DNA of 55,863 bases from Nitrospirota bacterium (GTDB lineage: Bacteria > Nitrospirota > Thermodesulfovibrionia > Thermodesulfovibrionales > SM23-35), in contig JBFMEC010000001.1 of NCBI GenBank assembly GCA_040753575.1, positions 1 to 55,863 of the forward strand. The letters run 5' to 3'. The notes beneath the pieces are model-generated. The model saw only the letters and a list, made by a program, of their open reading frames with translations. It was not told the origin of the DNA and made no database searches. Shown in pieces: positions 2,813-46,471 of the stretch; position 1 is the first letter of the stretch, and each line of letters opens with the position of its first letter. The position numbers and the translations under genes were made by a program.

Positions 2813-3225
2813 TAAAAGTGGACTTTTGGGCTGACGTCTTATCTGGAGAAGATTATATGGAATGTCAGGATGAGGCCAAAGTCGAGTATCTGAAGATAAG
2901 GCTTAAATCAGGGTTTAATAAAGATAAAGTTCCAAAGATGACTCTTATTTCACAGAAATCCTTCCGGAACTAAAAGCCTTAAAGAAAAAATAGACCAAAT
3001 AATCTCAGACCACATTCCTTCTATCACAAGCCAGAAATTACAAAAAAAGATTCTGCAAAAATTACAGGGAGAGTTATTTGAATAAGGATAAAAATCTTAT
3101 TGCCCTGATGCCGAGCATTCTCGTTGCAAGTCGTATACTGAGCATGGCTTTAAAAGGAGAATCAAAATAAGAGTCAAAAGAGACCTATGTTATAATTATG
3201 TAAATATTTCATGTAAGGAGGAAGC

Positions 3226-3465
3226 ATGCCATCTATGAAAGCGATCGAAGATAAAATCATCATGAAATTAAAAGACTTACCAGAAGAGGGGAAAAAGGAA
3301 GTACTTGCATATATAGATCATTTAAAAAGTAAAAAAACAGAAAAAACTCTAAGACTGATAAAGAAAACCGCAGGTGCATGGAAAGGGCTTATTGATACTG
3401 AAAAGTTAAAGCGTGATATTTATTCAGACAGGCTTATTTCTACAAGGTCAAGAGTCAAGTTTTGA
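3226..3465 (+). CDS. Antitoxin (DUF2281-like) of a VapBC-type pair
   Basis: 79 aa with an N-terminal KLKDLPEEGKKEVLAYIDHLKSKK pattern. The stop overlaps the TTG start of the downstream PIN gene (TTGA overlap at 3462-3465). RBS AAGGAGG upstream. Confidence 0.6.
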   Translation: MPSMKAIEDKIIMKLKDLPEEGKKEVLAYIDHLKSKKTEKTLRLIKKTAGAWKGLIDTEKLKRDIYSDRLISTRSRVKF

Positions 3466-3857
3466 AATATTTAATCGACACTGACTGGATTATAGACCAT
3501 CTTAATGGTATCGAATCTGTAACAAAGAAACTTGAAAAGTTAGCTCCTTCAGGCATCTGTACAAGTATCATATCTGTTGCTGAACTTTACGAAGGTGTAT
3601 ATGGTTCAAGGAATTACGAAGATAGCCTTAGTGCATTAGAAACTTTTCTTGAAGGTATTACAGTTTTACCCATAGACCAAGATATATGTAGAATCTTTGG
3701 AAGAGAAAGAAATAAATTACGGAAACATGGAAACATTATTGGAGACTTTGACCTTCTGATAGCCTCTATATGTTTAAGACACAATCTTACACTTCTGACA
3801 AATAATAAAGAACATTTTGAAAGAATAGATTCACTAAAAATTATCTCATTGGTATAG
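3462..3857 (+). CDS. vapC: PIN-domain toxin VapC
   Basis: 131 aa. Has the MKYLIDTDWIIDHL N-terminus (first acidic PIN residue), SVAELYEG and DLLIASICLRHNLTLLTNNKEHFERI. Translationally coupled to the antitoxin. Confidence 0.8.
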   Translation: MKYLIDTDWIIDHLNGIESVTKKLEKLAPSGICTSIISVAELYEGVYGSRNYEDSLSALETFLEGITVLPIDQDICRIFGRERNKLRKHGNIIGDFDLLIASICLRHNLTLLTNNKEHFERIDSLKIISLV

Positions 3858-4004
3858 TTGACAGACTAAATGTATAAAACGGGGCGAGTACATTTTTCAG
3901 AGCTTATTCTAAATGAAGCCTCAAATCAGAATGTTTTGCAATCGTCTTAAAGTGTTCTCTTTTGTAAAAGTGGCATTCCCCTGCTTAATTTGAGGTGAAA
4001 TGAC

Positions 4005-6477: not shown

Positions 6478-9315
6478 TCAGCCTATTGTCGGAACTTGGT
6501 CAGCCGTTGTCTTATCAAGGATGGCTTTTAAATACTTTCCCGTATAGGATTTTTTAACATTAATAATTTCTTCGGGTGGACCTTCAAAAATGATCCTCCC
6601 TCCTTTATCTCCACCTTCGGGACCTAAATCCACTATCCAGTCCGATGCCTTTATGACATCGAGGTTATGTTCGATAACAACAACTGTATTACCTGAGTCA
6701 ACCAGTCTCTGGAGCACATCGAGTAATGCCTTAACATCCCTGAAATGTAATCCCACTGTAGGCTCGTCAAGTATGTAAAGAAGCCCCTTCATTTCATAAG
6801 TTTTTCCGAAAGGAAATTTAGTTTCTCTCATAGCTTCTAACTCTGCGCATATTTTGAGCCTCTGTGCCTCACCTCCCGAAAGTGTAGTTGCCGGTTGACC
6901 GAGCCTGATGTAGCCAAGTCCTATATCTTTCAGTAAGGAAAGTTTATTTCTAACGGGAGCAATATCGGAAAAAAGTTCCATAGCTTCTTCTACCGTCATG
7001 TTCAGGACATCGTCTATATTTTTACCCCTGTAGGTTACCCGCAGGGCCTCTGGTTTGTATCTCCTGCCGCCGCATTTTTCACATTTAATATAGAGGTCTT
7101 CAAAGAAATACATCTCAAGCCTCTGGTATCCTTCACCTTTGCAGGTCTCACATCTGCCTCCTGGCACATTAAAGGAGAAGAATCCTTGCCCGTATCCGTA
7201 GGTCTTTGCCTCTGTCTGTTCTGCGAAGAGTTTTCTTATTACATCGAAGACCTTCAAATATGTCACGGGATTCGAACGGGGAGTCCTGCCTATTGGTGTC
7301 TGGTCGATGAGTTTAATGCCTCTTAAAAACTTGGTACCTTCAATCTTTTCATAGGGCAAGGGGAATTCTCTTTCGCCTTGAAACTCCTTAGCCAGTACCC
7401 TATAGAGAGTCTCTACAATGAGGCTGCTTTTTCCTGAACCTGAGACCCCTGTCACTGTTGTAAGCGTCTGTAAAGGGATATGGAGATCCACGGACTTCAG
7501 GTTGTTGCCCGTAGCACCAAAGAGCAAGAGTTTTCTCCCGCTGCCATTTCTCCTCTTCAGGGGAGGTTCTATTTTGTCAATTCCCTTTATATAACGTGAT
7601 GTTAGAGTATCAGTTTTAAGGAACTCCTCCATCGTACCTGAAAATACCACCTTTCCTCCTTTATGGCCACCTCCGGGGCCAAGTTCGACTATCCAATCGG
7701 CAGAACCTACGATCTCTCTATCATGTTCAACAACAAGTATGGAGTTACCAAGTCTCGAAAGATCTAACATAATGTCCGCAATTATTTCTGTGTCTCTTGC
7801 ATGGAGCCCGACTGTTGGTTCGTCCAGCACATAGAGTGTACCCGTAAGAAATGATGCAAGCTGGTTTGACAGGTTGATCCTCTGGTATTCACCTCCCGAA
7901 AGAGTCCTGCCATCGCGGCTCAGGTTAAGATAATCAATACCTACCCGCTGGAGGAACCTGAGTTTCATATCAATCTGCCTGAAGAGTTCCTTTGCAAGAT
8001 CTCTTTGAAAGGGAGATATCTCCAGATTTGCGAAAAACTTAATTATATCTGATACTGCCATCTCACTTAGTTCTGCTATATCAAGACCTGAAAGCCTGTA
8101 TGCCAGCGACTCCTTCCTTAACCTTTTACCATGGCATTGAGAACAGATTATAGGCCTTCTATACCGGCTAAGGAAAACCCTGATATGAAGCTTGTATCTC
8201 CTGCTTTCCATCTCCTCGAAGAAATCATCAATCCCATAAAAACTGCTGCTGCCTTTAAATAAACGAGCTTTCTCTTCAGGAGAAAAGTCTGCGTATGGCT
8301 TATTGATGTCAATGCCCCCTTTATGGGCGTTCTTTAAGAGCTGTCCTTTCCACCACCTGTAAGCGGGCTTGTCCCATGGCTCAACCGCACCCTCTGCCAC
8401 CGAACGATCTTTATCGGGAATTATCAAATCCTCATCATATCTGAGTATATTTCCGAATCCCTTGCAGGCAGGACAGGCACCAACAGGATGGTTGAAAGAG
8501 AAGAGAAGAGGATATGGTTTTGGCAGTTCGATGGTACATTCATCGCATATGTTTTCGGAAGTGAAAACGTGACCCGTGACCCGTGACCCGTGACTCGTAT
8601 TTATAATGATGACCTTTATTCTTCCCTTTCCTTCCTTCCATGCCATCTCTACGGAGTCCGAGAGTCTCGCCTCATCTTTGATCACAAGCCTGTCGAGGAC
8701 AATATCAATTAATCCCCCCTTGCCCCCCTTTAGTAAAGGGGGGATGGGGGGATTTTCGTCCTTTTGAAATTCCGAAATATCAACGACTTCGTCGTTGAGC
8801 CATAACCTGTAAAATCCCCTCTTCTTAAGCTCCCCGATTGATTCTCTTGTTTCGAAAAGTATGATAGCCTTTTCTCCTGAATGTTTTTCTACAAGCTCTG
8901 AAATCACCTGCGATGTATCCCACATTCTTATCTCCCTGCCGCAGTTTGGGCAAAAGGGTGTAGAAATTTTTGAGTAGAGGATCCTGAAGAGATCATAAAG
9001 CTCTGTCAACGTTCCAACGGTCGATCGTGATCCCTTAACAGGATTTTTCTGTTCAAGGGCTATGGCGGGTCTGATGTTGTGTATTGCATCAACATCAGGT
9101 CTATCAAGTTTCTCGAGAAAAAGTCTTGCATAGGTTGACAGAGATTCGATGAACCTCCATTGTCCTTCGGCAAAGACGGTATCAAAGGCAAGAGATGATT
9201 TCCCGGAGCCCGATACTCCTGTAATAGCTATGACCCTGTCATGGGGGAGACGGAGGTTAATATTCTTGAGGTTATTCTGCCGGGCACCCTCGATTATCAG
9301 TCTTCTTTCAGGCAT
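6478..9315 (-). CDS. uvrA: Excinuclease ABC subunit A
   Basis: 945 aa. Two ABC ATPase modules (GVSGSGKSSLAFDT and GVSGSGKSSL), LSGGE signatures, Zn-finger CxxC pairs, and an N-terminus IIEGARQNNLKNI. Confidence 0.97.
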   Translation of the reverse strand: MPERRLIIEGARQNNLKNINLRLPHDRVIAITGVSGSGKSSLAFDTVFAEGQWRFIESLSTYARLFLEKLDRPDVDAIHNIRPAIALEQKNPVKGSRSTVGTLTELYDLFRILYSKISTPFCPNCGREIRMWDTSQVISELVEKHSGEKAIILFETRESIGELKKRGFYRLWLNDEVVDISEFQKDENPPIPPLLKGGKGGLIDIVLDRLVIKDEARLSDSVEMAWKEGKGRIKVIIINTSHGSRVTGHVFTSENICDECTIELPKPYPLLFSFNHPVGACPACKGFGNILRYDEDLIIPDKDRSVAEGAVEPWDKPAYRWWKGQLLKNAHKGGIDINKPYADFSPEEKARLFKGSSSFYGIDDFFEEMESRRYKLHIRVFLSRYRRPIICSQCHGKRLRKESLAYRLSGLDIAELSEMAVSDIIKFFANLEISPFQRDLAKELFRQIDMKLRFLQRVGIDYLNLSRDGRTLSGGEYQRINLSNQLASFLTGTLYVLDEPTVGLHARDTEIIADIMLDLSRLGNSILVVEHDREIVGSADWIVELGPGGGHKGGKVVFSGTMEEFLKTDTLTSRYIKGIDKIEPPLKRRNGSGRKLLLFGATGNNLKSVDLHIPLQTLTTVTGVSGSGKSSLIVETLYRVLAKEFQGEREFPLPYEKIEGTKFLRGIKLIDQTPIGRTPRSNPVTYLKVFDVIRKLFAEQTEAKTYGYGQGFFSFNVPGGRCETCKGEGYQRLEMYFFEDLYIKCEKCGGRRYKPEALRVTYRGKNIDDVLNMTVEEAMELFSDIAPVRNKLSLLKDIGLGYIRLGQPATTLSGGEAQRLKICAELEAMRETKFPFGKTYEMKGLLYILDEPTVGLHFRDVKALLDVLQRLVDSGNTVVVIEHNLDVIKASDWIVDLGPEGGDKGGRIIFEGPPEEIINVKKSYTGKYLKAILDKTTADQVPTIG
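8571..8598. repeat. Heptamer tandem repeat GACCCGT x3 + GACTCGT inside uvrA
   Basis: Direct reading: gacccgt gacccgt gacccgt gactcgt. It encodes TSHGSRVTG on the minus strand, in a variable loop of UvrA. Confidence 0.9.
8711..8754. repeat. C-run/G-run palindromic element, in frame inside uvrA
   Basis: AATCCCCCC TTG CCCCCC TTTAGTAAA GGGGGG AT GGGGGG ATT. It is translated as PPIPPLLKGGKGG. The same architecture recurs at 19564-19604. Confidence 0.85.
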
Positions 9316-9414
9316 TTTTATTATTTTACACTTTTCAGGCGTGGATCTGCGAAATACGATTCTGGAATAATTCTTTGCTCCTGAGTGTTATGCCTGGTTA
9401 GTTCCGGGAAAAAA

Positions 9415-9843
9415 TCAGAAGTTCCGGTTGTTATTGCAGTCTATCCTGAAGGTATCTCCTACAATTCTTGTGCCTGTGTTACCAAAGGCAGATGCTCTGA
9501 AACAGGGTGTAAGATTGTTGCCGTTAAGGTCAATGTTTTGTTCTATGCAGTAACTGAAGCCTGGTCCAGTGCTCGGGTTGAAGCCAGGAAGCAATGCACG
9601 AATTGCCGCTATGTTATCGTTATCGGCTGCACATGTTCCTGCCGATGCAGTATAGTTGCTATTCTCAGAAAAAAATTGCTCCTCAAGAAGCCTGAGAGAC
9701 TCGAGGTTTGCATATGCCTCAGTTCTGGCAGCACTCCTCTGCTGACCGATATAGGCGGGGATCGCAATCGCCGCGAGAATGCCGATAATAGCAATAACGA
9801 TAATAAGCTCTGTTAAGGTGAACCCCTTTTTATTCATATTCAT
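9415..9843 (-). CDS. Prepilin-type (type IV pilin/pseudopilin) protein
   Basis: 142 aa with the N-terminal cleavage/methylation motif KKGFTLTELIIVIAIIGILAAIAIPAY. RBS AAAGGAGG. Confidence 0.8.
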   Translation of the reverse strand: MNMNKKGFTLTELIIVIAIIGILAAIAIPAYIGQQRSAARTEAYANLESLRLLEEQFFSENSNYTASAGTCAADNDNIAAIRALLPGFNPSTGPGFSYCIEQNIDLNGNNLTPCFRASAFGNTGTRIVGDTFRIDCNNNRNF

Positions 9844-9872
9844 ATTTAACCTCCTTTTCCTGACCGGGATTG

Positions 9873-10862
9873 TCAGACTGGGGATTCGAGGAATTCAGCC
9901 ATCTGCCTGTCGAGGTTTTTATACCACTTAATTGTTCTTTCCAGACCTTCATCCAAGCTGATCCTCGGAACCCATCCGAGCAATCTCCTCGCTTTTTCAT
10001 TAATGCAAAAAAAATGCCTGTTTTCACCAGGTCGTTTGGGTAGAGCCCCAATAAGTAACTTTATAGGGCTTCCCATCATGAGAACAATTTTTTCTGCTAC
10101 ATCCCTTATCCTGTATTCAATTCCATTGCCGATATTTATGACCTCTCCTAAAGCTTCCCTTGAGACCGCAGCGAGGAGGAATGCCTCTACAACATCATCT
10201 ACATAGTTGAATTCCCTTGTCTGGTCGCCTTCCGTCATCGCAAAGTCCTTTTTCTGAAGACAGTGATGGATCAGGGAAGGTATAAACATGTCGGTATCCT
10301 GAAAAGGTCCATAGGTGAGAAATGGTCTGACCGTGACAATTGGTAAACCCATCGTTTTGCAAAGCATCTGACAAAAATGGGTCACAGCCACCTTACTGGC
10401 TGAATACGGAGAGACTGGCATCTCCCTCTGATCCTCGCTAAATGGAGTTTCACCATCTCCATACTCCTCGGAAGCCCCTGTATTTACAAAACATTCCAGA
10501 TCTACCTTTTCTTCCAGAACCCTCTGCAGAAGATTAAGTGTGCCTTTAATATTGACATTAATCACGGTGTCAATTAATTCCGGGTCTCTTTTGACATTTC
10601 TGAAGGCGGCAAGGTGAAAGATAATCTGGGGCTTTGAATTCTTAATACAGAATGAGACTGACGGATAATCCCTCACGTCTCCATACCATATCTTGAGGTC
10701 TTTAGTGATATCTTGAATCCTGAATTGATTACTATTCCGGCTTATTAAAACATGTACCTCCGCTCCTTCCCCAATGAGCCTTCTGGTTAGGTGGGAGCCG
10801 ATAAATCCCGCTGCACCGGTCACGAGGATTACCTTATCTTTCAAAGATCTCAATCTTTCCAT
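9873..10862 (-). CDS. NAD-dependent sugar epimerase/dehydratase/reductase (extended SDR)
   Basis: 329 aa with the Rossmann motif VTGAAGFIGSHL and catalytic YSASK. Overlaps rfbF by 13 nt. Confidence 0.75.
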   Translation of the reverse strand: MERLRSLKDKVILVTGAAGFIGSHLTRRLIGEGAEVHVLISRNSNQFRIQDITKDLKIWYGDVRDYPSVSFCIKNSKPQIIFHLAAFRNVKRDPELIDTVINVNIKGTLNLLQRVLEEKVDLECFVNTGASEEYGDGETPFSEDQREMPVSPYSASKVAVTHFCQMLCKTMGLPIVTVRPFLTYGPFQDTDMFIPSLIHHCLQKKDFAMTEGDQTREFNYVDDVVEAFLLAAVSREALGEVINIGNGIEYRIRDVAEKIVLMMGSPIKLLIGALPKRPGENRHFFCINEKARRLLGWVPRISLDEGLERTIKWYKNLDRQMAEFLESPV

Positions 10863-11638
10863 ATTTTCCAGGGAGCCCTGCCACTTTCCCAGTATTCGTT
10901 AAGGAGATTCATGTCACGAAGTGTATCCATACACTGCCAAAAACCTCCATGTTGATAAACGATAAGCTGGCCCTCCTTTGCAAGCCTTTCTAACGGTTCT
11001 CTCTCTAAAATACATTGATCATCTTCCGACAGATAGGTGAATACTCCCTTATTGAATACAAAAAATCCTCCGTTTATAATGCCGCTGCCGACCTGCGGTT
11101 TTTCGCTGAATTCAATAACCCTGCCTCCTTTAGTGATTAATTCACCAAATCTTGAAGGTGGCTTAACACCGGTGATGGTGGCCAGTTTTCCGTGAGAAAG
11201 ATGGAACTGAAGAAGTTTCTTAATGTTTATATTAGCCACACCATCTCCATAGGTGAGAAGAAAGTCACTCGTATCTATATATTTTTCGATGCGTTTTATT
11301 CTTGCCCCCGTCATGGCCTTTAGCCCTGTATCTGCAAGGGTGACGCTCCAATCTTCACGATGGAGGTTATGAATCTGGATATCTTCGTGATCACCCAGAT
11401 TGATCGTAAAATCACTATTCTTAATCCTGTAGTGGAAGAAATATTCTTTAATTATCTCACCCCTGTAACCCAGGCAGATAATAAAGTCTTTGAATCCATA
11501 ATGGGAATATATCTTCATAATGTGCCACAGAATAGGTCTGGTACCGATCGGCACCATCGGCTTGGGTATAAACTCTGTCTGCTCTCTGAGTCTTGTTCCA
11601 AGCCCACCAGCTAAAATTACGACAGGAATACTTTTCAT
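10850..11638 (-). CDS. rfbF: Glucose-1-phosphate cytidylyltransferase
   Basis: 262 aa. VVILAGGLGTRLREQTEFIPKPMVPIGTRPILWHIMKIYSHYGFKDFIICLGY is the characteristic RfbF N-terminus. Confidence 0.85.
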   Translation of the reverse strand: MKSIPVVILAGGLGTRLREQTEFIPKPMVPIGTRPILWHIMKIYSHYGFKDFIICLGYRGEIIKEYFFHYRIKNSDFTINLGDHEDIQIHNLHREDWSVTLADTGLKAMTGARIKRIEKYIDTSDFLLTYGDGVANINIKKLLQFHLSHGKLATITGVKPPSRFGELITKGGRVIEFSEKPQVGSGIINGGFFVFNKGVFTYLSEDDQCILEREPLERLAKEGQLIVYQHGGFWQCMDTLRDMNLLNEYWESGRAPWKIWKD

Positions 11639-12639
11639 TTTGATATCTTCAATTCTTCTGCAGGATTCTCAAAAGAAATCACACTATTTGTTTCATGTTT
11701 GTATTCCTCTCTCACAACAAACAGGGGTCTCTGTTTTACTTCTACATAAAGCCTTCCTATGTATTCACCTATTACGCCCAGAAAGAAGAGTTGTAGTCCT
11801 CCCAGGGCAAGAATTGGCAGCAGGGTGGAGGCCCAACCAGGTATGAACTTGTCAGTGAAGATCTTGATATATAAAACCCAGAGGGCGCCAAGGAGAGTTA
11901 AGCCGGATATTAATATTCCTATCACAGAGGTTAATCTTAGAGGAAAATAAGTGAACGAAACTATCCCATCAAGACTGAGTGAAAATAGCGAGTTAATATT
12001 AAACTTTGATTTCCCTGCCATTCTCGGTTCACGTTTATAAAGAACTGTGGCATATCTTGATTCCAACTGTAAGATCATGGCTCTGATAAGCCGATTTCTT
12101 TCCGGAAGGGCATTGAATTCTTGAACCAGTGATTTTGCCATGAGCCGGAAGTCTCCGTGGTTATATACAATATCTACCCCCATTAACTTCATCAGCTTGT
12201 AATAATTCTCAGAGAAAAACCTTTTCACAAAGGAGTCTGCAGAGCGGTCTGAACGTACGCCTAAGACAAGGTCATATCCCTGTTCAAAGCAGGTTATCAT
12301 CTCCGCAATCTTTTCAGGGGGGTCCTGCAGATCGGCATCTATCGTAACAACAGCATCTCCTCTGGCATGGAAAAGACCTGCTGAGATAGAGCCCTGGAAG
12401 CCAAAATTACGCCTCAGGGCAATGATCCGGGTATGCCGATCTGATGCAAAGATATTCTTTAAAACCTGCAGGGTGTTGTCGGTTGATCCATTATCCACAT
12501 AAATAAGTTCATAATCAAAAATCCTTTTTGAGAGGATTAGATCATTGAGTACCTTACTAAGCCTTTTATGGGTTGAACTCAGAACCTCTTCCTCGTCATG
12601 ACACGGAACAACCACAGAAAATAGATTGATCTTCCTCAT
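11635..12639 (-). CDS. Polyprenyl-phosphate glycosyltransferase, GT2 (GtrB/ArnC/DPM1 type)
   Basis: 334 aa. GT2 core (VVVPCHDEEE, YVDNGSTDNT, IDADLQDPPEKI) plus a C-terminal two-TM tail ending LGVIGEYIGRLYVEVKQRPLF. Confidence 0.8.
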   Translation of the reverse strand: MRKINLFSVVVPCHDEEEVLSSTHKRLSKVLNDLILSKRIFDYELIYVDNGSTDNTLQVLKNIFASDRHTRIIALRRNFGFQGSISAGLFHARGDAVVTIDADLQDPPEKIAEMITCFEQGYDLVLGVRSDRSADSFVKRFFSENYYKLMKLMGVDIVYNHGDFRLMAKSLVQEFNALPERNRLIRAMILQLESRYATVLYKREPRMAGKSKFNINSLFSLSLDGIVSFTYFPLRLTSVIGILISGLTLLGALWVLYIKIFTDKFIPGWASTLLPILALGGLQLFFLGVIGEYIGRLYVEVKQRPLFVVREEYKHETNSVISFENPAEELKISK

Positions 12640-13373
12640 AATTTTCTTGCCACGGCAAAGAGACTAATTCCTACCGGGAGATTAATTCCACCCGATAAAA
12701 GCCTGTTCTCAAGCCCGAGAACATATTCCAGGGTTTTATTAATAAATCCGGGGGTCCCATATAATTGATCTCCTGATCCGGTTCCGTTGCGAGCGAAGAG
12801 TTTCTTGGTAAGCCTGATCAAAGTTGCTGGCAGGAACAAAGAGAAATTCCAGTAGGAAACTTTTTCTATCCTGAAACCATTCTTCTCTAAAATCTCGATG
12901 AGTCCTGCCTTTGAATACCTTCTGTAGTGGCGATTAACTTTATCATGTTGACTCCACAAGAATTTGAAGGCAGGAACGAATATGAACAATCTGCCGCCGG
13001 GCTTCAGAATCCTGTTCCATTCAAGCAATGCCCTGTCTTCTTCTCTGATATGCTCAAGGATATCAGAGGCTATGATCAGATCAAATTTCTGATCCTTAAA
13101 GGCAGTTTTCTCGGCATCAGCAACTGAGACATCACTGATATCCTTTTGTCTGCAAATCTCTATTGCATCTTTGTCAATATCTATACCATATAACTTTTTA
13201 AAACCCTGTTTTTTTAAGAATTTCAATAAGGCCCCTCCAGAGCAACCCACCTCGAGGATCCGGACATCCCTGCCGTAATCCTTTATTAACTTATAAATCA
13301 TGTCTCTCCTTGCATGGAACCACCAGTAGATCTCTTCTAATTGATGATATTTTTCAGCATAAGATTTTTCCAT
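12636..13373 (-). CDS. Class I SAM-dependent methyltransferase
   Basis: 245 aa with motif I ILEVGCSGGALLKFL and acidic post-I IDID. 4-nt overlap with the GT2 gene. Confidence 0.75.
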   Translation of the reverse strand: MEKSYAEKYHQLEEIYWWFHARRDMIYKLIKDYGRDVRILEVGCSGGALLKFLKKQGFKKLYGIDIDKDAIEICRQKDISDVSVADAEKTAFKDQKFDLIIASDILEHIREEDRALLEWNRILKPGGRLFIFVPAFKFLWSQHDKVNRHYRRYSKAGLIEILEKNGFRIEKVSYWNFSLFLPATLIRLTKKLFARNGTGSGDQLYGTPGFINKTLEYVLGLENRLLSGGINLPVGISLFAVARKL

Positions 13374-13375
13374 CT

Positions 13376-14362
13376 TTACATTCCGGTGCCTTTTAGATAA
13401 TCTTTATACCATTCTATCGCCTCAGAAAGGCCCTCCCTGAGAGAAAAGATTGGTTTCCATCCAAGCATCTCCCTCGCCTTTTTTGCTGAAAGAAACTGTT
13501 CACGAATCTCACCTTTTGCCTCATTCAGAATAACCGGCTCCAGATCCGAACGTTTCATTAATGAAAGGATCTCGTTTGTTATTTCTAAAACACTCAGGGG
13601 GGTATCATTGCCAAAATTAAAGGCCTGACCCGCAATGCGACTATCATCCATTCTTTCCGCTAAAAGGATATATGCCTTTGACGCATCTCTAACATAGAAG
13701 TAATCTCTTACATATTTTCCATCGCTTCTTATAATAGGTCTTTCGCCATAAAAAACCGACCGAATCGTTCCAGGCACAATTCTGTTGAAATTAAGGTCGC
13801 CTCCTCCAAATAGGTTGCCGCATCTCGTTACACATACAGGAAGTCCGTAATGATGGAAATACATCTGGGCTGTCAGATCCGCACAGCTCTTAGAAAGATC
13901 ATAAGGATTTCTTCCCCGAAGAGGCATGTCTTCTGTATAAGGCAGTATCTTCTGCTCACCATATGCCTTATCACTGGATGCAACAATCACCTTTTTTATC
14001 CTTTTATTCCGTCTACAGGCCTCCAGCAACATCCATGTCCCCTTAATGTTTGACTCAAAAGTCGAGAGGGGATTGTTGTTTGCTATCGGGACAATAGCCT
14101 GGGCAGCGAGATGAAAGACAACTTCTATTTCATATTCATTCAATGCTCTTTCAAGGAGATGATAATCTTCTAAACTACCGGATACAGTTGTTATCTTTTC
14201 GATAATTCTATCTCTGTAAATCCTTGATCTGGGAACATAGTCTCTAACCAAGCCGATTACATTAGCCCCCTCCTTTAGTAACTCCTCTGTAAGCCATGAT
14301 CCTAAAAGTCCGGTACAACCTGTCACAAGGACATTTTTATTCAGCCAATTTTTATTAAACAT
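13376..14362 (-). CDS. NDP-sugar 4,6-dehydratase (likely CDP-glucose 4,6-dehydratase)
   Basis: 328 aa. [14 protein letters not shown] and [11 protein letters not shown] (YxxxK) resemble RfbG, and the operon contains rfbF. Confidence 0.6.
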
Positions 14363-14370
14363 CCAGTTAA

Positions 14371-16281
14371 TTATAATATGCCAGAATTGGCAGTATTTTT
14401 GCTATTCTTCCGCTTTAAAGCAAGGTAGGCATTACAGAAGTTAGCTACAAGATCTTTTTTATCAAGTTCAAGAGCTGCCTCAATCATTTTTTTTGCATCT
14501 TCTTCCTTTCCTTTCATCATGAGGGCGAAGGCAAGGCTTGAATAGGGAGTTGAATAGGTTATCTTCTTTCTTACCAGGGGAGAAGTCTCGAGAATAATTT
14601 CATCATATATCAGTTCTTTTGGTTTTTTATATTTCTTAATAATTTCAGAATATTTAACATCATTTTTTATGAATATCTGCATAACTCCGTCAAGATAAAT
14701 AAGAACCCATTCATCATCCTTCAGAAGTCTTAAGATTAGCGGAAAGATCGCACCAGTGTAATCAGCGGTGGCTTCCTGGACTATCAGGTCAATGTTGTAC
14801 CGCTTTAAAAGACTTTTCCAGAAGGGTTTATCATTTTTTGACTTATAAGGATCTGTGGCAGAGACGTCAATTTTTCCTAATCCTTCCGGCACAAGGGCAC
14901 TGAGGGCACTCCCGAGGGCCAGATCCGCTGGTTCTGTGGGGTCATTCAATGCGTATTTGATAGCCTCACCTTCAAGTGTTGCGTCTAAGCTGATATAGCG
15001 GGTATCCTGGAAAACTTTGTAATGAGGGTAAAGCCTCCAGATCAGATAACTGCCTCTATTAGAAGAGTTGAACATAGTTGCATCAATATGATTATCAAGG
15101 AGAAAATTGGCCGCCCTTTCAGGATAAAACCTGTGCTTTCCGATTTTAAAGATATCCCTGTAATCTTTTAGTCCAAAGCCGATTGTTAAAATGAGAAAGA
15201 CCGAAAATACTATAAATGCAGCCCTGGTTCTGGCCAGGAATTTTAAGAAGTCAGGATTCTTGAAAAAATTGTAATTTCTTGATAAAGGTACGGCAACCGC
15301 CATAAAAAAGGGCACATACCTTAAAGATGTAAAGGCGGCAACTGAGGAAAAAATAATGAGAGCAAGGGTTGTAAAGTTTATGGATTTTGTCCTGATCATA
15401 TTCAGGGACGTCAAAATACTTATTAAGCCAAAAAGAACCCAGAAAGAGATATTGGCGGTTTTCATTCCATAGGGAAACCTTGTCTCAGCCACAGGACTCA
15501 TATATTCGCGGACACTGTAGTAAAGCCATTTTGCGCTTGTATGAGATTCAAGGGTGGTAAGAAGCTGCCCATTAAAATCAGGGTTTATGTAAGAAAAGAT
15601 TACTGCTGCCAGACCTGTCAGAAGGAGAATCAGGACTGATTTCTTTGTTAATGGTTGACCGATATTAAAATCAGGCTTGATCTTCTTTACGAAGAACTTA
15701 AATGCCTCTGACATTGTATAGATTAAAATAAGGGCCAGACCAAAGACGAAACCGGCGTGCATATTAGACCACAAAAGTATGAGGGGAGGAATAAAATAGA
15801 GTGGCCGGGCTGAATTCGGGTTTTCTCTGAATTTTTCAAAAAGAAGAATAAGTATTAATGTGAAGAGGAATGAAAAATATTGGGGCCTGTCAAGCTTGTA
15901 AGGTAAAAAGATTATAGTTACAAGTATGACAATCAGCATAGAGGAGTAGAGCCCTTTTCTTCTTAAGGCAAACCACAAAAGGAAAACATAGGAAGAAAAA
16001 ACTGCTGCCCTCAGGAGAATTATCCCCGATGGTCCGGCTATTGAATAGAGCTTGTAAAATATAACCTGTGAGAGCCAGTATTGCGTGAGGGTAAATTTTT
16101 CCCTATCCGTTGAAATCCCCTCATCATGGAAAGAGAAGGGATCATCCTCGGGAATTTCCTTATTTTGATATATATATTCTCCTGTTTTAAGATGGAAGGG
16201 GAAATCAACATCAACGATGGGACCTAAAAAATTGACAAAGACGGCTATGATGAAAAGGCTGACAAGGATCTTCTCCTTCAT
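14371..16281 (-). CDS. Large polytopic membrane protein, GT-C-like glycosyltransferase candidate with a TPR-like C-terminal tail
   Basis: 636 aa with about 12 or more hydrophobic segments. Acidic motifs in the first extracytoplasmic loop (DVDFPF, PEDDPF), a soluble C-terminal domain of about 200 aa, and a TPR-like [25 protein letters not shown]. The family assignment is not verified. Confidence 0.45.
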
Positions 16282-16334
16282 TGGATAATAATATTAGTCA
16301 AAGGTGTAGTCAAAATTCAAGCTTTAAGAGTTCA

Positions 16335-16366
16335 GGAGGACCGGGAAAAATTTTTCCCGGTCCTCC
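16335..16366 (-). terminator. Perfect 16-bp-arm stem-loop just downstream of the pilin gene (attenuator/terminator candidate)
   Basis: GGAGGACCGGGAAAAATTTTTCCCGGTCCTCC is a perfect palindrome 9 nt after the pilin stop. There is no strong U-tract on the minus strand, so partial termination or RNA stabilisation is equally possible. Confidence 0.5.
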
Positions 16367-16375
16367 CCCGATGAA

Positions 16376-16906
16376 TTAATCGGCGCTTACTATTTTCCTG
16401 TAGATCTCGTTTCCGGTTCTATCACGGGCTACTAAGCTTATGTTATTGCCAGATGCGGCTGTGAAGCCGATAACAATCTGCCCATTGGAGACAGAATTTA
16501 AGCCACCCAGAGACCAGAGAGATTGACCTGCACTCCAGGGTGAAACTTCAGCTGGATGAACTGTTGTTGAGGTATTTCTGGCATTTACGTACAAACTGGC
16601 TACGGCATTAACCATCGTGGAATTGACATTGTCACCACTATCAATCATGCCATTCCAGTTGGTATCACACTCTCTCAGAGCAGCCGTAGGGCCTGTCTTT
16701 AACGAAGCTGTAAGCCATGACTGGACGTCTGCCTCAGCTCCACCAGCAGCCCTCTGTACTGCTCCTTTTCTCCCTCTTTCCTGAACTCCGAGGTAGCCGG
16801 GAATTGCTATTGCAGCCAGAATTCCGATGATTGCCACAACGACCAGTAACTCGATCAGGGTGAAGCCTTTTTCACCTTTCTTCATCTTTGAGATCGTCTT
16901 AAACAT
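16376..16906 (-). CDS. Prepilin-type (type IV pilin-like) protein
   Basis: 176 aa with the N-terminal KGFTLIELLVVVAIIGILAAIAIPGY. RBS AAAGGAGGT 6 nt upstream of the ATG. Confidence 0.8.
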   Translation of the reverse strand: MFKTISKMKKGEKGFTLIELLVVVAIIGILAAIAIPGYLGVQERGRKGAVQRAAGGAEADVQSWLTASLKTGPTAALRECDTNWNGMIDSGDNVNSTMVNAVASLYVNARNTSTTVHPAEVSPWSAGQSLWSLGGLNSVSNGQIVIGFTAASGNNISLVARDRTGNEIYRKIVSAD

Positions 16907-16926
16907 CTTTTACCTCCTTTCTAATA

Positions 16927-17010
16927 AAATTCTAAATTCCAAGCACTAAATCCTGAACAATATCTAAATCCCAAACTATTTGCAACATTAGAATTTGGAA
17001 TTTAGTGCTT
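16927..17010. repeat. Heptamer-word block with internal complementary arms
   Basis: AAATTCT AAATTCC AAGCACT AAATCCT ... AGAATTT GGAATTT AGTGCTT. The segment AAGCACTAAATCC is complementary to GGAATTTAGTGCTT with one indel. Confidence 0.7.
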
Positions 17011-17202
17011 TTCTTCGTGGTGGCATGGCATGTTATCCTCTTCAAAGAGTAAATCCTGTTCCAGCGATGACATAGACCACATGGATTCCTCTTTGACCTT
17101 GTTCTCTTCCGGCGAGTCCATGCCTAAAAACATGCTGTTTTGGAACCAGTTTATTCCTGCCCGAGATTCTGATGAATCTTCAGGAATGCCACCGTAAACC
17201 AT
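17002..17202 (-). CDS. Small acidic hypothetical protein (66 aa)
   Basis: Strong RBS AAAGGAGGTGA 9 nt upstream of the ATG, and a sigma70-like promoter upstream. No recognisable domain. The C-terminus is PCHHEEKH. Confidence 0.35.
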   Translation of the reverse strand: MVYGGIPEDSSESRAGINWFQNSMFLGMDSPEENKVKEESMWSMSSLEQDLLFEEDNMPCHHEEKH

Positions 17203-17373
17203 TACTATTTCATCACCTCCTTTGTTTTAATTTTTCCTGAAGATTCAAAAAAGCAAGCACTATGCCAGAGCACAAAGGTACTGATTTAATATTTGGAAAG
17301 CCTAAAAAAAGAGGAATAATCAATGGGTTTGAAGTTTCCTTATCGGATAACCTCACCAGTGATTGTTTTATGG

Positions 17374-17403
17374 ATTATACAGGAAAAGACAATTTAATGA
17401 CAA
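17374..17403 (-). promoter_or_regulatory. Sigma70-like promoter for the small ORF and pilin
   Basis: Minus strand reads TTGTCA (17398-17403), an 18-nt spacer, then TATAAT (17374-17379). Confidence 0.5.
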
Positions 17404-17419
17404 AAAATGGCAAATTTTT

Positions 17420-17836
17420 CTATTCCCAGCTATTGATATCTTTGTTTTCGCCTTCACCACCAGGTTCACCATCAACTCCATAGGAGAAAAGATCATAATC
17501 TCCATGGCTTCCTGGTGATTCATAATGATATGGTCTACCCCAGGGATCATTTGGAGCTATCTTCTTTAGATAAGGTCCCTCCCAGCCTGGTGTGCCAGGG
17601 TTATTCAATAATGCATTCAAACCCTCTGCTGTTGTGGGATATCGGCCCGTATCGAGCCTGAACTGATCCAGACCCTGGCCAAGTAGCTCTATCTGCGCCT
17701 TAGCTGCAGATTGCTTACCCTTTCCGACCTTGGGCAATAACCTCGGAAATACAAGAGCTGCCAGCATACCTATAATAACCATAACAACCAGAAGTTCAAC
17801 GAGCGTAAAGCCCCTTTTATTTTTCACAATCTTCAT
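17420..17836 (-). CDS. gspG: Type II secretion pseudopilin GspG
   Basis: 138 aa: KRGFTLVELLVVMVIIGMLAALVFP, AKAQIELLGQGLDQFRLDTGRYPTTAEGLNAL, DPWGRPYHYESPG, DLFSYGVDGEPGG. Confidence 0.85.
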   Translation of the reverse strand: MKIVKNKRGFTLVELLVVMVIIGMLAALVFPRLLPKVGKGKQSAAKAQIELLGQGLDQFRLDTGRYPTTAEGLNALLNNPGTPGWEGPYLKKIAPNDPWGRPYHYESPGSHGDYDLFSYGVDGEPGGEGENKDINSWE

Positions 17837-17976
17837 GCTTCCTCCAGCATTCTTTCATCATGATTTTTTTAGGATTTCTTTTTTTTATTTTAACTTAGCG
17901 TACAAAATTGCGTCAAATAACCCTTTACCCGTGAATGTTATAGATGCTAAAATCTCACCATCTTATTGACTGTTAT

Positions 17977-18011
17977 TTGGTTATTGGAATTTGGTTATTG
18001 GTAATTGAATA
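17977..18011. repeat. Heptamer tandem words directly upstream of the radC ATG
   Basis: TTGGTTA TTGGAAT TTGGTTA TTGGTAA TTGAATA. Confidence 0.85.
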
Positions 18012-18012
18012 T

Positions 18013-18699
18013 ATGGCATATCCAGGTATTAAAAGTTGGCCTGAAGGTGAAAGACCGAGAGAGAGACTCCTGAAACATGGCTCTCATAACCTCTCTAAGG
18101 CACAATTAATAGCGATAATACTCCGTACCGGGGGAGGGGGCAAGAGCGCCCTTGATCTTGCACTGGAGATATTGAAATCCTTTGGAAATCTAAGAAAGCT
18201 TGAAAATGCCTCACTCGCTGAATTTGTCTCTTTCAAAGGAATGGGAAAAGCAAAGGTTGCACAGTTAAAGGCGGCCTTTGAACTTGGAAGAAGACTCCTT
18301 GAAGAACCCGCCGAAAGAGGCCCGGCCTTCTCCTCGGGTTACGACGTATATTCTTACTACTCCCGGCGTTTCAAGAATCTGAAGAAGGAGACCTTCTGTT
18401 GCGCAATGCTTGATGCAAAAAACAGAATATTTAAAGACTGCCAGATCTCTGAAGGGACTCTGACTAATTCATTAATACATCCACGAGAAGCCTTCAGAGA
18501 TGCAATAAAAGAATCTGCAGCTTCCGTCATATTTGTCCATAACCATCCGAGCGGTGACCCAAATCCCAGTCGTGAAGACATATTAATAACAGAGAGACTT
18601 GTAAAAGTAGGTGAATTAGTAGGCATAAAGGTTCTTGACCACCTAATAATAGGAGAGGAAAAGTATACCAGTATGATGGAGAAAGGATATATGAAGTGA
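18013..18699 (+). CDS. radC: RadC-family JAB-domain protein
   Basis: MAYPGIKSWPEGERPRERL, HhH region, and JAMM motif HNHPSGDPNPSREDI. The start is trimmed from track position 17944 because the extension is repeat-encoded. Confidence 0.85.
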   Translation: MAYPGIKSWPEGERPRERLLKHGSHNLSKAQLIAIILRTGGGGKSALDLALEILKSFGNLRKLENASLAEFVSFKGMGKAKVAQLKAAFELGRRLLEEPAERGPAFSSGYDVYSYYSRRFKNLKKETFCCAMLDAKNRIFKDCQISEGTLTNSLIHPREAFRDAIKESAASVIFVHNHPSGDPNPSREDILITERLVKVGELVGIKVLDHLIIGEEKYTSMMEKGYMK

Positions 18700-44098: not shown

Positions 44099-45346
44099 AT
44101 GAAGAAGTACGACACGCCTTTGATTGACGAGTTGGAAAAAGGGCCATTTCCAAGTTTCGTCACCGAGATCAAGAAGGCAGCGAAGAAGAATGAAATGGCC
44201 AATGATGAATTGGGTCAGCTCGAGTACTCTTTCAAGACCAACCGCGGATACTGGAAGCATGGTGGAATTGTTGGTGTCCTCGGCTATGGAGGTGGTATCA
44301 TCGGAAGATACTCTGAGCTACCGGATAAGTTCCCCAATGTTGAATTTTTCCACACCGTCAGGATAAACCAGCCGTCTGGTTGGTTTTACACCACAGAGGT
44401 GTTGAGAGAAATTGCGGACATTTGTGACAAGTACGGGAGCGGCATTACAAACTTTCATGGTTCCACTGGTGACATGGTTTTACTCGGGACGACTACCGCG
44501 AATCTCGAACCCATTTTTGCAGAGCTTACGTCTAAGGAAAAACCTGCCCATTTAAGATTTGATCTTGGTGGCTCAGGTTCTGCCATGAGGACGCCGAGTT
44601 GCTGTAATGGTCCTGCACGTTGCGAATGGACGAACTATGACACCATGGAGGCCTGCTACCAGATTACACAGGAATTCCAGGATGAACTCCATAGGCCGGC
44701 ATTTAACTATAAATTCAAGTTTAAGTTCGCAGGTTGCGCCTGTGACTGTGTTGCATCTATGGCTCGTTCTGACTGTTCTGTAGTTGGCACATGGAGAGGT
44801 CCCATCCTTATCGACCAGGATGCCATAAAATGGCATGAAAAGAAGGGAGTAGATGTCCAGAGAGACATTGTAAACATGTGCCCCACGCAGTGCATCACCT
44901 ACGATGGTAAAGCGATGAAGATAGACAATGCTGAATGTATCAGGTGTATGCATTGTATTTCAAAACTTCATCATGCACTGAAACCAAGCGGTGAAAGGGG
45001 TGCAACAATCTGTATCGGTAATAAGGCACCTATCGTTATAGGAACCATACTCTCCCATGTCATCATCCCATTTATGAAGATGGAGGCACCTTTTAATGAA
45101 CTTAAGGAATTGGCCCGTAAGATGTGGGACTGGTGGGATGAAAATTCAAAACCCAGGGAAAGGATAGGAGAGGTTATAGAGTTTAAGGGCATGAGGTCTT
45201 TCCTCGAGGCCATTGATGTGCCTCCTATGCCGTATCATGTTAAAGAGCCGAGAAGAGACCCCTTCTGGTTCTTCAAGGAAGAGGATATAGAAGTACTTAA
45301 GAAGAAAGAGGAAGAGGAAAAGAAGACTGGAAAATTTAAATTTTAA
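44099..45346 (+). CDS. dsrA: Dissimilatory sulfite reductase alpha subunit
   Basis: 415 aa. Siroheme/FeS Cys clusters CNGPARC and GCACDC, and the ferredoxin insert CPTQCI...CIRCMHC. RBS AGAGGAGG. Confidence 0.95.
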   Translation: MKKYDTPLIDELEKGPFPSFVTEIKKAAKKNEMANDELGQLEYSFKTNRGYWKHGGIVGVLGYGGGIIGRYSELPDKFPNVEFFHTVRINQPSGWFYTTEVLREIADICDKYGSGITNFHGSTGDMVLLGTTTANLEPIFAELTSKEKPAHLRFDLGGSGSAMRTPSCCNGPARCEWTNYDTMEACYQITQEFQDELHRPAFNYKFKFKFAGCACDCVASMARSDCSVVGTWRGPILIDQDAIKWHEKKGVDVQRDIVNMCPTQCITYDGKAMKIDNAECIRCMHCISKLHHALKPSGERGATICIGNKAPIVIGTILSHVIIPFMKMEAPFNELKELARKMWDWWDENSKPRERIGEVIEFKGMRSFLEAIDVPPMPYHVKEPRRDPFWFFKEEDIEVLKKKEEEEKKTGKFKF

Positions 45347-45358
45347 AGGAGGTATAAA

Positions 45359-46471
45359 ATGGGATTCTATGGTGACAGGAAACTAACTGAAGAGGAATGT
45401 AAGAAACTCAGAGAGACAGATATAGGGCCACCCCACTATAAACATTTTTTGCCGCCGGTAATCCAGAAAAATTATGGCAAATGGAAGGACCATGAGATCC
45501 TGAACCCCGGCCTGATGGTTCATATAGCAGAAAGCGGTGATAAGGTATGGAGTGTGAGAGTGGCAACGCCAAGGATTATAGCCACTGATACAATCCGTGA
45601 AGTGTGTGATATAGCAGATAAGTATTGTGGTGGGCATCTCCGCTGGACATCAAGGAATAATATAGAGTTCCTCGTATCAGAGGAGAAAAATGTTGAGCCC
45701 ATTCAGGAAGAGCTTAAGAAACGCGGCTTCTTGATGGGTGGCATCGGCTACAGGATAAGCAACATGGTTCATACCCAGGGCTGGGTTCATTGCCATGGTG
45801 CTGCAACAGATGCTTCCGGCATAGTTAAATCTGTTATGGATGAGCTTGCTGATTATTTCACCACAAAGGAACTCCCTAATAAGCTGAGACTCGCCCTCGC
45901 ATGCTGCCCCAATATGTGCGGCGCCGTCCACTGTTCAGACATAGCGGTAGTTGCGATTCACACAAAGGTGCCCCCGGTTGATGCTGAGAGATTGCGTAAG
46001 GTTTGTGAGATACCTACAGTCATCGCATCCTGCCCGACAAGGGCGATAAGCCCTGATCCTGCCACAAAAAGCGTCAAGATCAATGCTGAAAAATGCATGT
46101 ACTGCGGAAACTGTTTCACCGTCTGCCCGGCCATTGACATCAAAGACCCTTACAGAGATGGTCTTGCGATAGTTATCGGTGGTAAGGTAACAAGCCAGAG
46201 AACTAATCCAAAGTTCTCAAGGCTTGCTATTCCTTATATTTCAAATGAGCCGCCGAGATGGCCGAAGGTTGTTGGAGCAGTAAAGCACATCGTTGAGCTC
46301 TATGCAAAGCATGCAAGAAAATATGAGAGAGTTGGCGAGTGGATAGACAGGATCGGCTGGGAGAAATTCTTCCAACTCAGCGGAATCGAGTTTACATATC
46401 AGTGCATCGATGATTTCACCTTCATGAGGGAGACTCTGAGGAATACGCCAACATTTAAGTGGATTTCGTGA
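45359..46471 (+). CDS. dsrB: Dissimilatory sulfite reductase beta subunit
   Basis: 370 aa with [11 protein letters not shown] and the ferredoxin insert CPTRAI...[12 protein letters not shown], immediately after dsrA. Confidence 0.95.

Follow-up and report, generated by a model that had tools for sequence, protein, structure and literature searches.

Glycosylation of type IV pilins is known from a few pathogens and from two types of enzyme, the Wzy_C-like TfpO/PglL and the Emb-like TfpW. Here we describe a gene island at positions 9415-17836 (minus strand) of contig JBFMEC010000001.1 (assembly GCA_040753575.1), one of the contigs of a Nitrospirota, Thermodesulfovibrionales-like metagenome-assembled genome (MAG); the whole stretch of 55,863 nucleotides that was analyzed is called the window below. 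In this island two pilin genes flank a six-gene block that encodes a 636-aa membrane protein with the predicted fold of a GT-C glycosyltransferase, a family 2 glycosyltransferase (GT2) of the GtrB type, and enzymes for making an activated sugar. We consider it probable that the island is a lipid-linked periplasmic glycosylation system for the flanking type IV pilins.

The system closest in biology is TfpW of Pseudomonas aeruginosa group IV (Pa5196/PA7). As in the window, its GT-C gene lies beside the major pilin gene, the pilin receives its sugar in the periplasm from a polyprenyl-phosphate-linked monosaccharide of cytoplasmic origin, and loop 1 and a large C-terminal domain of the enzyme are periplasmic. 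TfpW itself has been described as Emb-like, has a proline-rich motif and polymerizes D-arabinofuranose, made from phosphoribosyl pyrophosphate through DprE1/E2; its sugar genes lie elsewhere and its system includes a GtrA-like protein. By contrast (TfpW was compared by its description), the GT-C of the window resembles oligosaccharyltransferases (OSTs) and DPY19, its donor would be made by a GtrB-type GT2 from a nucleoside diphosphate sugar, the sugar cassette is part of the pilin island, and a flippase gene is lacking. TfpO/PilO and PglL also have genes beside pilin genes and glycosylate pilins in the periplasm, and glycan diversity is thought to mask pili from phages and antibodies (10.1101/150227). 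They have an unrelated Wzy_C/O-antigen ligase-like fold and an undecaprenyl-diphosphate-oligosaccharide donor, while the GT-C of the window has no Wzy_C match (Pfam, E 0.01).

A three-component framework for periplasmic glycosylation, GtrA/GtrB/Gtr*, was derived from Shigella and Salmonella O-antigen modification and has been generalized (PMC11127046). It shares with the window a GtrB-type synthase of undecaprenyl-phosphate (Und-P) sugars and a GT-C that adds a single sugar outside the cytoplasm. The window differs in its predicted acceptor (a pilin rather than O-antigen), in lacking a GtrA, SMR or MATE flippase gene, in a donor nucleotide that is probably cytidine diphosphate (CDP) and not uridine diphosphate (UDP), and in a GT-C family that has no Pfam model. 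In the streptococcal GtrB-PgtC2 and Pgf (PgfS/PgfM1/PgfE/PgfM2) systems, a GT2 likewise feeds GT-Cs that O-glycosylate extracytoplasmic proteins with a monosaccharide; these systems work in Gram-positive hosts on Ser/Thr-rich disordered targets, use glucose or N-acetylgalactosamine from UDP-sugars, and have no link with pilins. ArnC/ArnT also pairs a GT-C with a GT2 of the same architecture as that of the window (134-147 bits between the GT2s), with lipid A as acceptor and ArnE/F flippase genes in the operon. Finally, AglB, STT3, PglB and DPY19 are the nearest solved folds to the GT-C of the window and share with it an acidic first external loop and a large C-terminal extracytoplasmic domain; the expected donor in the window, a lipid-monophosphate monosaccharide, is like that of DPY19 and unlike the lipid-diphosphate oligosaccharide of the OSTs.

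The features of the island, all on the minus strand, are as follows (GT-C domains are given after the gene that contains them; SDR, short-chain dehydrogenase/reductase; TM, transmembrane; TPR, tetratricopeptide repeat).

9415-9843 (-): pilin A, 142 aa with 4 Cys, PF07963 N_methyl (E 4e-9), a candidate acceptor
9873-10862 (-): SDR2, an extended SDR, PF16363 and PF01370
10850-11638 (-): RfbF, glucose-1-phosphate cytidylyltransferase, TIGR02623
11635-12639 (-): GT2, GtrB-type polyprenyl-phosphate glycosyltransferase with a two-TM C-terminal tail
12636-13373 (-): class I S-adenosylmethionine-dependent methyltransferase, PF08241 (E 2e-22)
13376-14362 (-): SDR1, probable CDP-glucose 4,6-dehydratase (RfbG-like), best NCBIfam match TIGR02622
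14371-16281 (-): GT-C, 636 aa, annotated at NCBI as 'hypothetical protein AB1638_00070'
15172-16281 (-): TM catalytic domain of GT-C, aa 1-370, 11 predicted TM helices
14659-15171 (-): periplasmic alpha/beta domain of GT-C, aa 371-541, from the secondary structure of the AlphaFold2 (AF2) model
14383-14658 (-): C-terminal TPR-like helical tail of GT-C, aa 542-633, five helices in the AF2 model
16285-16313 (-): sigma-70-like promoter match (TTGACT-17-TATTAT) directly 5' of the GT-C start
16334-16367 (-): hairpin directly 3' of pilin B, a terminator or mRNA-stabilizer element
16376-16906 (-): pilin B, 176 aa, PF07963 N_methyl (E 5e-10), the candidate major pilin and a candidate acceptor
17002-17202 (-): 66-aa ORF, acidic, with a good Shine-Dalgarno sequence
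17420-17836 (-): GspG-type pseudopilin, TIGR01710 (161 bits, cut-off 89)

In the proposed mechanism, RfbF would make CDP-glucose in the cytoplasm and SDR1 would convert it to CDP-4-keto-6-deoxyglucose, which SDR2 would reduce and/or epimerize and the methyltransferase would probably methylate, giving a CDP-6-deoxyhexose. At the inner membrane face GT2 would move this sugar to undecaprenyl (polyprenyl) phosphate, and the lipid-sugar would be flipped by a flippase encoded outside the island. In the periplasm the GT-C, using the lipid-monophosphate sugar, would glycosylate the flanking pilins before or during pilus assembly (we assume an O-linkage). The GT-C has a first-loop DxD/His motif and further invariant residues in the periplasm, and the TPR-like tail possibly recruits the pilin. 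That the donor of the GT-C would be a polyprenyl-phosphate sugar is suggested solely by the co-encoded GtrB-type GT2.

The ten ORFs that an initial annotation of this DNA had named were all found on the minus strand at the coordinates listed above, and the junctions agree as well: from the GT-C gene downwards there are 8-nt and 2-nt gaps, overlaps of 4, 4 and 13 nt, and 29 nt before pilin A, with 94 nt between pilin B and the GT-C gene. Both flanking ORFs have the prepilin N-termini and the upstream ORF the GspG identity that had been claimed for them (matches in the list).

The 636-aa protein was identified by structure comparison, the only informative route, as sequence searches gave matches to its C-terminal TPR part only. 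No Pfam-A model (E 0.01) and no NCBIfam model matches it, all three of its single-sequence matches in the PDB are TPR proteins, and so are the best 60 of the 241 PDB matches of a profile of its family. The Pfam models for PMT/PMT_2/ArnT (GT39/GT83), DPY19, YfhO, Wzy_C (PglL/TfpO) and STT3 match neither the protein nor 40 of its relatives; in those 40 only C-terminal TPR models are found (TPR_2 in 16 of them). An AF2 model built on an alignment of 40 sequences has a pLDDT of 92.9 and a pTM of 0.91, and when it was compared with the PDB by Foldseek, the best 19 matches were all AglB, STT3, PglB or DPY19 (probability 1.00, E 2e-7 to 1e-4, TMq 0.44-0.54), that is, protein-modifying GT-Cs (oligosaccharyltransferases and the DPY19 C-mannosyltransferase). 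Matches to ALG9 (E 0.05), ArnT (E 0.08), AftB (E 0.15) and EmbC (E 0.63) are weaker. According to the model, then, the protein has the GT-C glycosyltransferase fold that the initial annotation had suspected, and oligosaccharyltransferases are its closest structural relatives. Identity to AglB, STT3, PglB and DPY19 is 8-13% with no match at the sequence level, and the WWD motif (W[WYF]D) is absent from the 11-TM protein, so it is not a member of the STT3/PglB/AglB family.

The topology read from the model has 11 TM helices and a cytoplasmic N-terminus, with the basic residues of helix ends on the cytoplasmic side, and in this reading the conserved C-terminal domain would be periplasmic. The TM domain has ten invariant residues. 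Nine of them (D26, G34, W69, R132, W171, N173, H175, E259 and R321) are in periplasmic loops or at the periplasmic ends of helices, and G181 sits inside TM6; the predicted active face is periplasmic. The loop after TM1 carries D24-x-D26, of which D26 is invariant, together with H30 and D47 (each conserved in 90% or more of the sequences), and the conserved residues of the alpha/beta domain are P387, N405, G410, Y412, P419, D426, R428, W525 and D531. The TPR-like tail claimed by the initial annotation is seen in the family profile (positions 527-592 match TPR proteins) and in the model, where five helices make up the last ~95 residues, although the window protein itself has no Pfam match there.

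The family is very large. Searching 1.84 billion cluster representatives with the profile gave 16,875 matches at E <= 1e-30, a number to which TPR-only proteins may have added; among the best 150, nearly all are near-full-length and a few are truncated. A genome scan found at least 558 relatives, and the best 78 loci, which were retained, come mainly from Nitrospirota and in part from Desulfuromonadales/Geobacter and Bryobacterales.

With the ORFs of 83 non-redundant loci (numbered L001 and so on) labeled by phmmer and a prepilin regular expression, we were able to ask which members of the family are found next to pilins. All 10 full-length GT-C orthologues (>50% identity, one per locus, including that of the window) sit in a pilin-flanked island. 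These islands begin with one or two pilin B-type genes directly 5' of the GT-C gene(s) and usually end with a pilin A-type gene (pilin A orthologues close the island in L001, L003, L005, L010, L012, L013, L092 and L093); in four loci a tandem second GT-C paralogue lies between the upstream pilin(s) and the main GT-C. When GT-Cs are clustered at ~38% identity, pilin adjacency is seen in cluster 17 (10/10), 16 (7/7), 15 (3/4), 18 (2/4) and 19 (1/1), so that four more subfamilies, 28-37% identical, are pilin-adjacent despite differing gene order and strand. In the largest clusters no member is pilin-adjacent (0/20, 0/19, 0/7 and 0/5). Within 2.5 kb of a GT-C gene there are 32 pilin ORFs in 0.38 Mb, as compared to 2, unrelated to an island, in 0.78 Mb of farther flank. 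A reverse look-up from pilin B homologues (47% identity) found a neighboring member of the GT-C family both times (2 of 2 loci), in one of them on the opposite strand. That adjacency survives changes of gene order and orientation speaks for a functional link rather than inherited synteny. Pilin adjacency is a trait of particular subfamilies and not of the whole GT-C family. Conservation of the neighborhood had been named as a check on the initial annotation, and orthologous clusters always turned out to lie beside pilins.

The best surviving alternative is that the GT-C is a general periplasmic protein glycosyltransferase, comparable to Neisseria PglL or actinobacterial PMT, with the pilins as some of many substrates or mere neighbors. 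Its closest structural relatives are indeed OSTs of broad specificity, many different clients could dock to its TPR-like tail, most of the very large family is not linked with pilins, and a second member of it (P0066) is encoded in the same MAG. Yet the pilin-linked subfamilies stay next to pilins through rearrangements and cassette swaps, and the separate tandem paralogue between pilin and main GT-C in some loci suggests specialization. We therefore regard a general enzyme as unlikely.

Further evidence comes from the sugar genes. The cassette of the window (SDR1, methyltransferase, GT2, RfbF, SDR2) is found in 7 of the 10 orthologous loci (window, L001, L005, L013, L014, L037 and L015; in L015 both SDR1 and the GT-C are fragmented), and it recurs in L093 beside a more distant GT-C. 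Other cassettes, each with its own GtrB-like GT2, are found in L003, L010, L012, L020 and L092; they draw on methyltransferases, a DegT aminotransferase, an SDR, an ATP-grasp enzyme, a haloacid dehalogenase (HAD) hydrolase or an acetyltransferase. When the GT-C orthologues are placed on a neighbor-joining tree, the two types of cassette are intermixed: L010, with an alternative cassette, is sister to L037, with the CDP cassette (their GT-Cs are 68% identical), and one clade with alternative cassettes falls among the CDP clades. The tree thus implies two or more exchanges of the cassette during which the GT-C and the pilins were kept. The cassette is a swappable module and not a fixed part of the system, a pattern expected of a surface-glycan diversity island, and it suggests that the GT-C tolerates different sugars. 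The fixed six-gene system of the initial annotation has to be revised accordingly: its linkage with pilins holds, but its sugar genes are exchangeable and pilin B is probably a separate transcription unit.

A second alternative is that the GT-C decorates a non-protein envelope glycan (lipid A or the core of lipopolysaccharide (LPS), O-antigen or exopolysaccharide), as ArnT and Gtr* do, and that the pilins merely flank a recombination hot spot. Pairs of a GtrB/ArnC-type GT2 and a GT-C classically modify LPS, the host is a diderm (the window contains Kdo and lipid A genes), ArnT, AftB and EmbC are among the weak fold matches, and variable cassettes between conserved flanks are what a hot spot would produce. 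Hot-spot cargo would nonetheless show the opposite of what we see, as here the GT-C keeps company with the pilins while the cassette changes; distant subfamilies with other gene orders or on opposite strands are still pilin-adjacent, the islands contain no other LPS or exopolysaccharide genes, and the ArnT/Emb matches are 4-6 orders of magnitude weaker than those to OST/DPY19. An envelope glycan as acceptor thus appears improbable to us, and we return to the pilins as the predicted acceptors.

Among the enzymes of the cassette, RfbF is the clearest. It passes the equivalog cut-off of TIGR02623 (368 bits, cut-off 300), as expected from the initial annotation, and matches 1tzf over its full length with 301 bits. 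SDR1 is probably a CDP-glucose 4,6-dehydratase, judging from its best PDB matches (1rkx and 1wvg, both CDP-glucose 4,6-dehydratases, 154 bits) and its motifs (SSDK aligns with TSDK, and YDLSK with YSNSK). SDR2, found directly after RfbF in the window, L088 and L090, may be either a 4-ketoreductase or an epimerase of the CDP-sugar pathway. The methyltransferase accompanies the CDP cassette within Nitrospirota and presumably acts on the sugar.

By its sequence, the GT2 (PF00535, E 3e-29) is a GtrB-type polyprenyl-phosphate glycosyltransferase. It aligns with Synechocystis GtrB (5ekp) over its full length (245 bits, residues 7-311 over 28-328), and the alignment spans the C-terminal transmembrane region including the GEYIGRLYVEVKQRP tail motif. 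In GtrB, residues D94, D96, Q98, D99 and D157, and R122, R125, K132, K180 and R197, are those for metal binding, catalysis and Und-P binding (PMC12698845). The first five align with D101, D103, Q105, D106 and D163 of the GT2, and the others with R129, R132, K139, R186 and R203, so the two-TM tail of the GtrB/ArnC/DPM1 type that had been read from the sequence comes with the catalytic and Und-P-binding residues. The best NCBIfam match is PgfS with 244 bits (equivalog cut-off 500), and ArnC scores 147 bits (cut-off 529); with both scores far under the cut-offs, the GT2 is not an orthologue of either.

The initial annotation had remarked on the unusual link between a CDP-sugar pathway and a GtrB-like enzyme, and the comparison of loci strengthens this link. 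GT2s from CDP cassettes group in a subclade of their own, whose signature is V[DN]NGSTDNT, FG[YF]QGSI[ST]AGL and D[AC]DLQDPPEK, as compared to VDDGS, FSRNFGHH and DGDLQDPP in the GT2s of the alternative cassettes. Outside pilin islands, homologues of the GT2 that are 67-69% identical and have the subclade's signature were found in one Elusimicrobia contig and in three metagenome contigs without a taxon, and in all four loci an RfbF homologue (293-402 bits) lies within 5 kb of the GT2. Two of the four have a contiguous block of GT2, RfbF and SDR2, and a DegT/RfbH-like gene (437-465 aa) takes the place of the methyltransferase in the outside loci. It is chiefly this co-inheritance of GT2 and RfbF across phyla that speaks for the use of CDP-activated sugars by the subclade, and the GT2 of the window is probably a CDP-sugar-dependent synthase of lipid-linked sugar. 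We also considered the D-to-N change in the 'DDGS' motif of the GT2 as a mark of cytidine specificity; this idea is weakened by the UDP-glucose-dependent GtrB, which reads VNDGS, and the only consistent difference in this region is in the residue directly before Gly, which we note without counting it as evidence.

It is also unlikely that the donor of the GT2 is a common UDP-sugar, as for GtrB and ArnC, with the CDP genes feeding a separate pathway and the transferred sugar not CDP-derived: the characterized GtrB/ArnC/DPM1-type enzymes in the searched literature do all use UDP- or guanosine diphosphate (GDP)-sugars, without any CDP-glucose-GtrB coupling among them, and the score of the GT2 to the UDP-glucose-dependent GtrB is the high one given above, but the GT2 gene lies between those of the methyltransferase and RfbF with 4-nt overlaps, it encodes the sole cytoplasmic-face glycosyltransferase of the cassette, its subclade is linked with RfbF in 4/4 outside loci and has its own signature near the nucleotide-binding region, and swaps of the cassette bring a change of the GT2 too.

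Tentatively, one can go further and see in the island an unprecedented pair, consisting of a GtrB-type subclade for CDP-6-deoxy- or dideoxyhexoses and a very large unmodeled GT-C family (~17,000 clusters at 50% identity at E <= 1e-30, a number perhaps inflated by TPR-only proteins) with dedicated pilin subfamilies. The linkage could then be other than O-linked, which is conceivable as the fold neighbors make N- and C-linkages, with S122-P123-W124 of pilin B as one candidate site; we would put this possibility well below the proposed glycosylation of pilins as such.

Several observations weigh against the proposed glycosylation of the pilins. SDR1 stays under the equivalog cut-off of its best NCBIfam model (209 bits, cut-off 278), which qualifies the RfbG-like dehydratase of the initial annotation. 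The best PDB matches of SDR2 are mixed (Pal 6bwl, the UDP-glucuronic acid 4-epimerase 6zl6 and the Rmd reductase 2pk3), and as epimerases, dehydratases and a 4-ketoreductase they do not single out one reaction; the PDB matches of the methyltransferase are generic and do not either. No GtrB-type enzyme that uses a CDP-sugar was found in the searched literature. A GtrA, SMR or MATE flippase gene is absent from the islands of the window, L001, L003, L005, L092 and L093, and no locus examined has a flippase in or near the island. For the bulk of the wider GT-C family neither a pilin nor a GT2 gene lies close by, so that belonging to the family is in itself no sign of a pilin target. The orthologous loci are phylogenetically related, so that 10/10 overstates the number of independent observations. 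Finally, no acceptor site can be named: among 35 pilin B homologues, N-x-S/T sequons are neither enriched (mean 1.60 vs 1.73 in shuffles) nor conserved (no alignment column has a sequon in at least 40% of the homologues), which leaves N-glycosylation at a conserved sequon unsupported.

Taken with these points, the idea that a CDP-derived 6-deoxyhexose is passed via a lipid carrier to the flanking pilins, as initially annotated, is supported as a prediction from sequence. A literature search on pilin glycosylation in Nitrospirota or Thermodesulfovibrio found nothing relevant. Five differences set the island apart from known systems, namely the unmodeled OST/DPY19-like GT-C, the probably CDP-dependent synthase, the exchangeable sugar genes inside the island, the lack of a flippase gene, and the environmental Nitrospirota host. 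If the proposal is true, the GT-C would be a third, unrelated family of pilin-glycosylating enzymes, in an environmental sulfate-reducing phylum, and would open a first way to the function of a very large GT-C family that lacks a Pfam or NCBIfam model. The swappable cassette would be a signature of selection for surface diversity (e.g. evasion of pilus-specific phages), CDP-sugars are predicted as a new donor class for GtrB-type polyprenyl-phosphate glycosyltransferases, and the compact set of pilin, GT-C and five-gene cassette could serve glyco-engineering. The impact is limited by the fact that the logic of GT2, lipid-linked sugar, GT-C and protein is already established elsewhere, and that here it is read from MAG sequence.

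Type IV pilins (class III signal peptide proteins) are marked by a G|F-T-L-x-E prepilin motif before a hydrophobic alpha1-N helix and by a globular domain of alpha1 helix and beta-sheet. Pilin A and pilin B fit this class by their N_methyl matches, and pilin B also by its model, which (AF2, pLDDT 89) has a long alpha1 helix (17-68), a loop and a four-stranded sheet. Foldseek of the pilin B model against the PDB gave no significant match (best pilin match 9laa, E 0.89). NCBI begins pilin B at the second Met, giving 169 aa. The invariant residues of its globular domain are W64, E79, D81, D92, S122-P123-W124, W131, D162 and D176, and T82 and S122 (the latter within the S-P-W motif) are the only invariant hydroxyl residues there. 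Residues 81-92 (16631-16666, minus strand) form an EF-hand-like loop, D81-T-N-W-N-G-M-I-D-S-G-D92; in the 35 homologues E79, D81 and D92 are invariant and G86 nearly so, and from its sequence this loop may be a Ca2+-binding site between alpha1 and the sheet (alpha-beta loop).

Upstream of the pilins, the order RadC, GspG and pilin is kept in L001, L003 and L092, and a GspG gene also lies 5' of the pilin(s) in L012, L013, L015 and L018. The 66-aa ORF, called 'well-signalled' in the initial annotation, does have its Shine-Dalgarno sequence but is probably not a conserved gene: its only tblastn match, a weak one, is in L013, the closest relative (41% over 56 aa), and the remaining syntenic loci have none. 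We rejected it as a part of the system.

The stem-loop noted earlier between pilin B and the GT-C gene is confirmed as a hairpin with a perfect 15-bp stem and a 4-nt loop (dG -34.8 kcal/mol, z = -5.0); 0 of 200 shuffles fold equally well, and an Rfam scan of 9000-18200 gave no match. Strong hairpins are found at the equivalent site in L001, L003, L012, L013, L018, L020 and L037, most of them with a U-tract, which the copy of the window lacks. From these U-tract hairpins, which look like intrinsic terminators, and the sigma-70-like match before the GT-C gene (10/12 to the consensus, though shuffled sequence has such matches at least as often), pilin B is probably a transcription unit of its own, terminator-ended and highly expressed. 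In that case, transcription of the six-gene block and pilin A would depend on read-through or on a promoter of their own. The best sigma-70-like match of the region (TTGTCA-18-TATAAT, 11/12) lies at 17374-17403 (minus strand) between GspG and pilin B and could be a promoter for the pilin; inspection by eye showed no sigma-54 site.

We note some variation among the other loci. The second GT-C paralogue (cluster 16, ~590-628 aa) is found in L005 (8118-10004), L010 (6642-8519), L014 (8159-10000) and L037 (8130-10004), and cluster 16 provides the sole GT-C in loci with the order pilin, GT-C, pilin and GT2 (L038, L043 and L051); the tandem paralogues suggest a two-enzyme or two-site modification in some lineages. 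In L015 (9367-13600), from a long-read MAG, the GT-C and SDR1 orthologues are each split into several ORFs, either as pseudogenes or through homopolymer frameshift errors. A TPR-rich protein of 608-640 aa follows the downstream pilin in L005 (16890-18812) and L093 (16580-18406); that of L093 has no phmmer match to the GT-C family at E 1e-3, and that of L005 was not labeled as GT-C in the locus scan. Elsewhere, three to five GT-C paralogues lie within ~5-14 kb (L040 4375-11719, L048 2044-15909, L031 5462-15754 and L022 8353-13376), with no pilin or GtrB-like GT2 within 10 kb; L040 has five in tandem on one strand, and L048 and L031 have them on mixed strands.

The Elusimicrobia-like contig with the related GT2 (L088, 5531-16927) contains an SDR, a 437-aa DegT/RfbH-like gene, GT2, RfbF and another SDR, then a 1009-aa YfhO-family GT-C, and then T2SSE/T2SSF pilus-assembly genes. 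This layout ties the same GT2 subclade to a pilus locus via a different GT-C family.

As the initial annotation had stated for the surroundings of the island, the window contains no type IV pilus or type II secretion assembly gene, no GtrA/Wzx-like gene and no RfbH; the search for assembly genes and a flippase across the remaining window found housekeeping genes only, including UvrA, FtsH, KdsA, KdsD, LpxD, LpxI, BamA and a DsrAB-like pair. The last are two neighboring NIR_SIR/ferredoxin-like proteins (44099-46471, plus strand) that resemble DsrA/DsrB dissimilatory sulfite reductase, consistent with a sulfate- or sulfite-reducing Thermodesulfovibrionales host. At the other end of the window, a 915-aa DNA methyltransferase (65-2812, minus strand, N6_N4_Mtase) adjoins the stretch of lowest GC (2000-4000, 0.33-0.37 as compared to ~0.43 across the remaining window), and the two may represent a restriction-modification or mobile segment.

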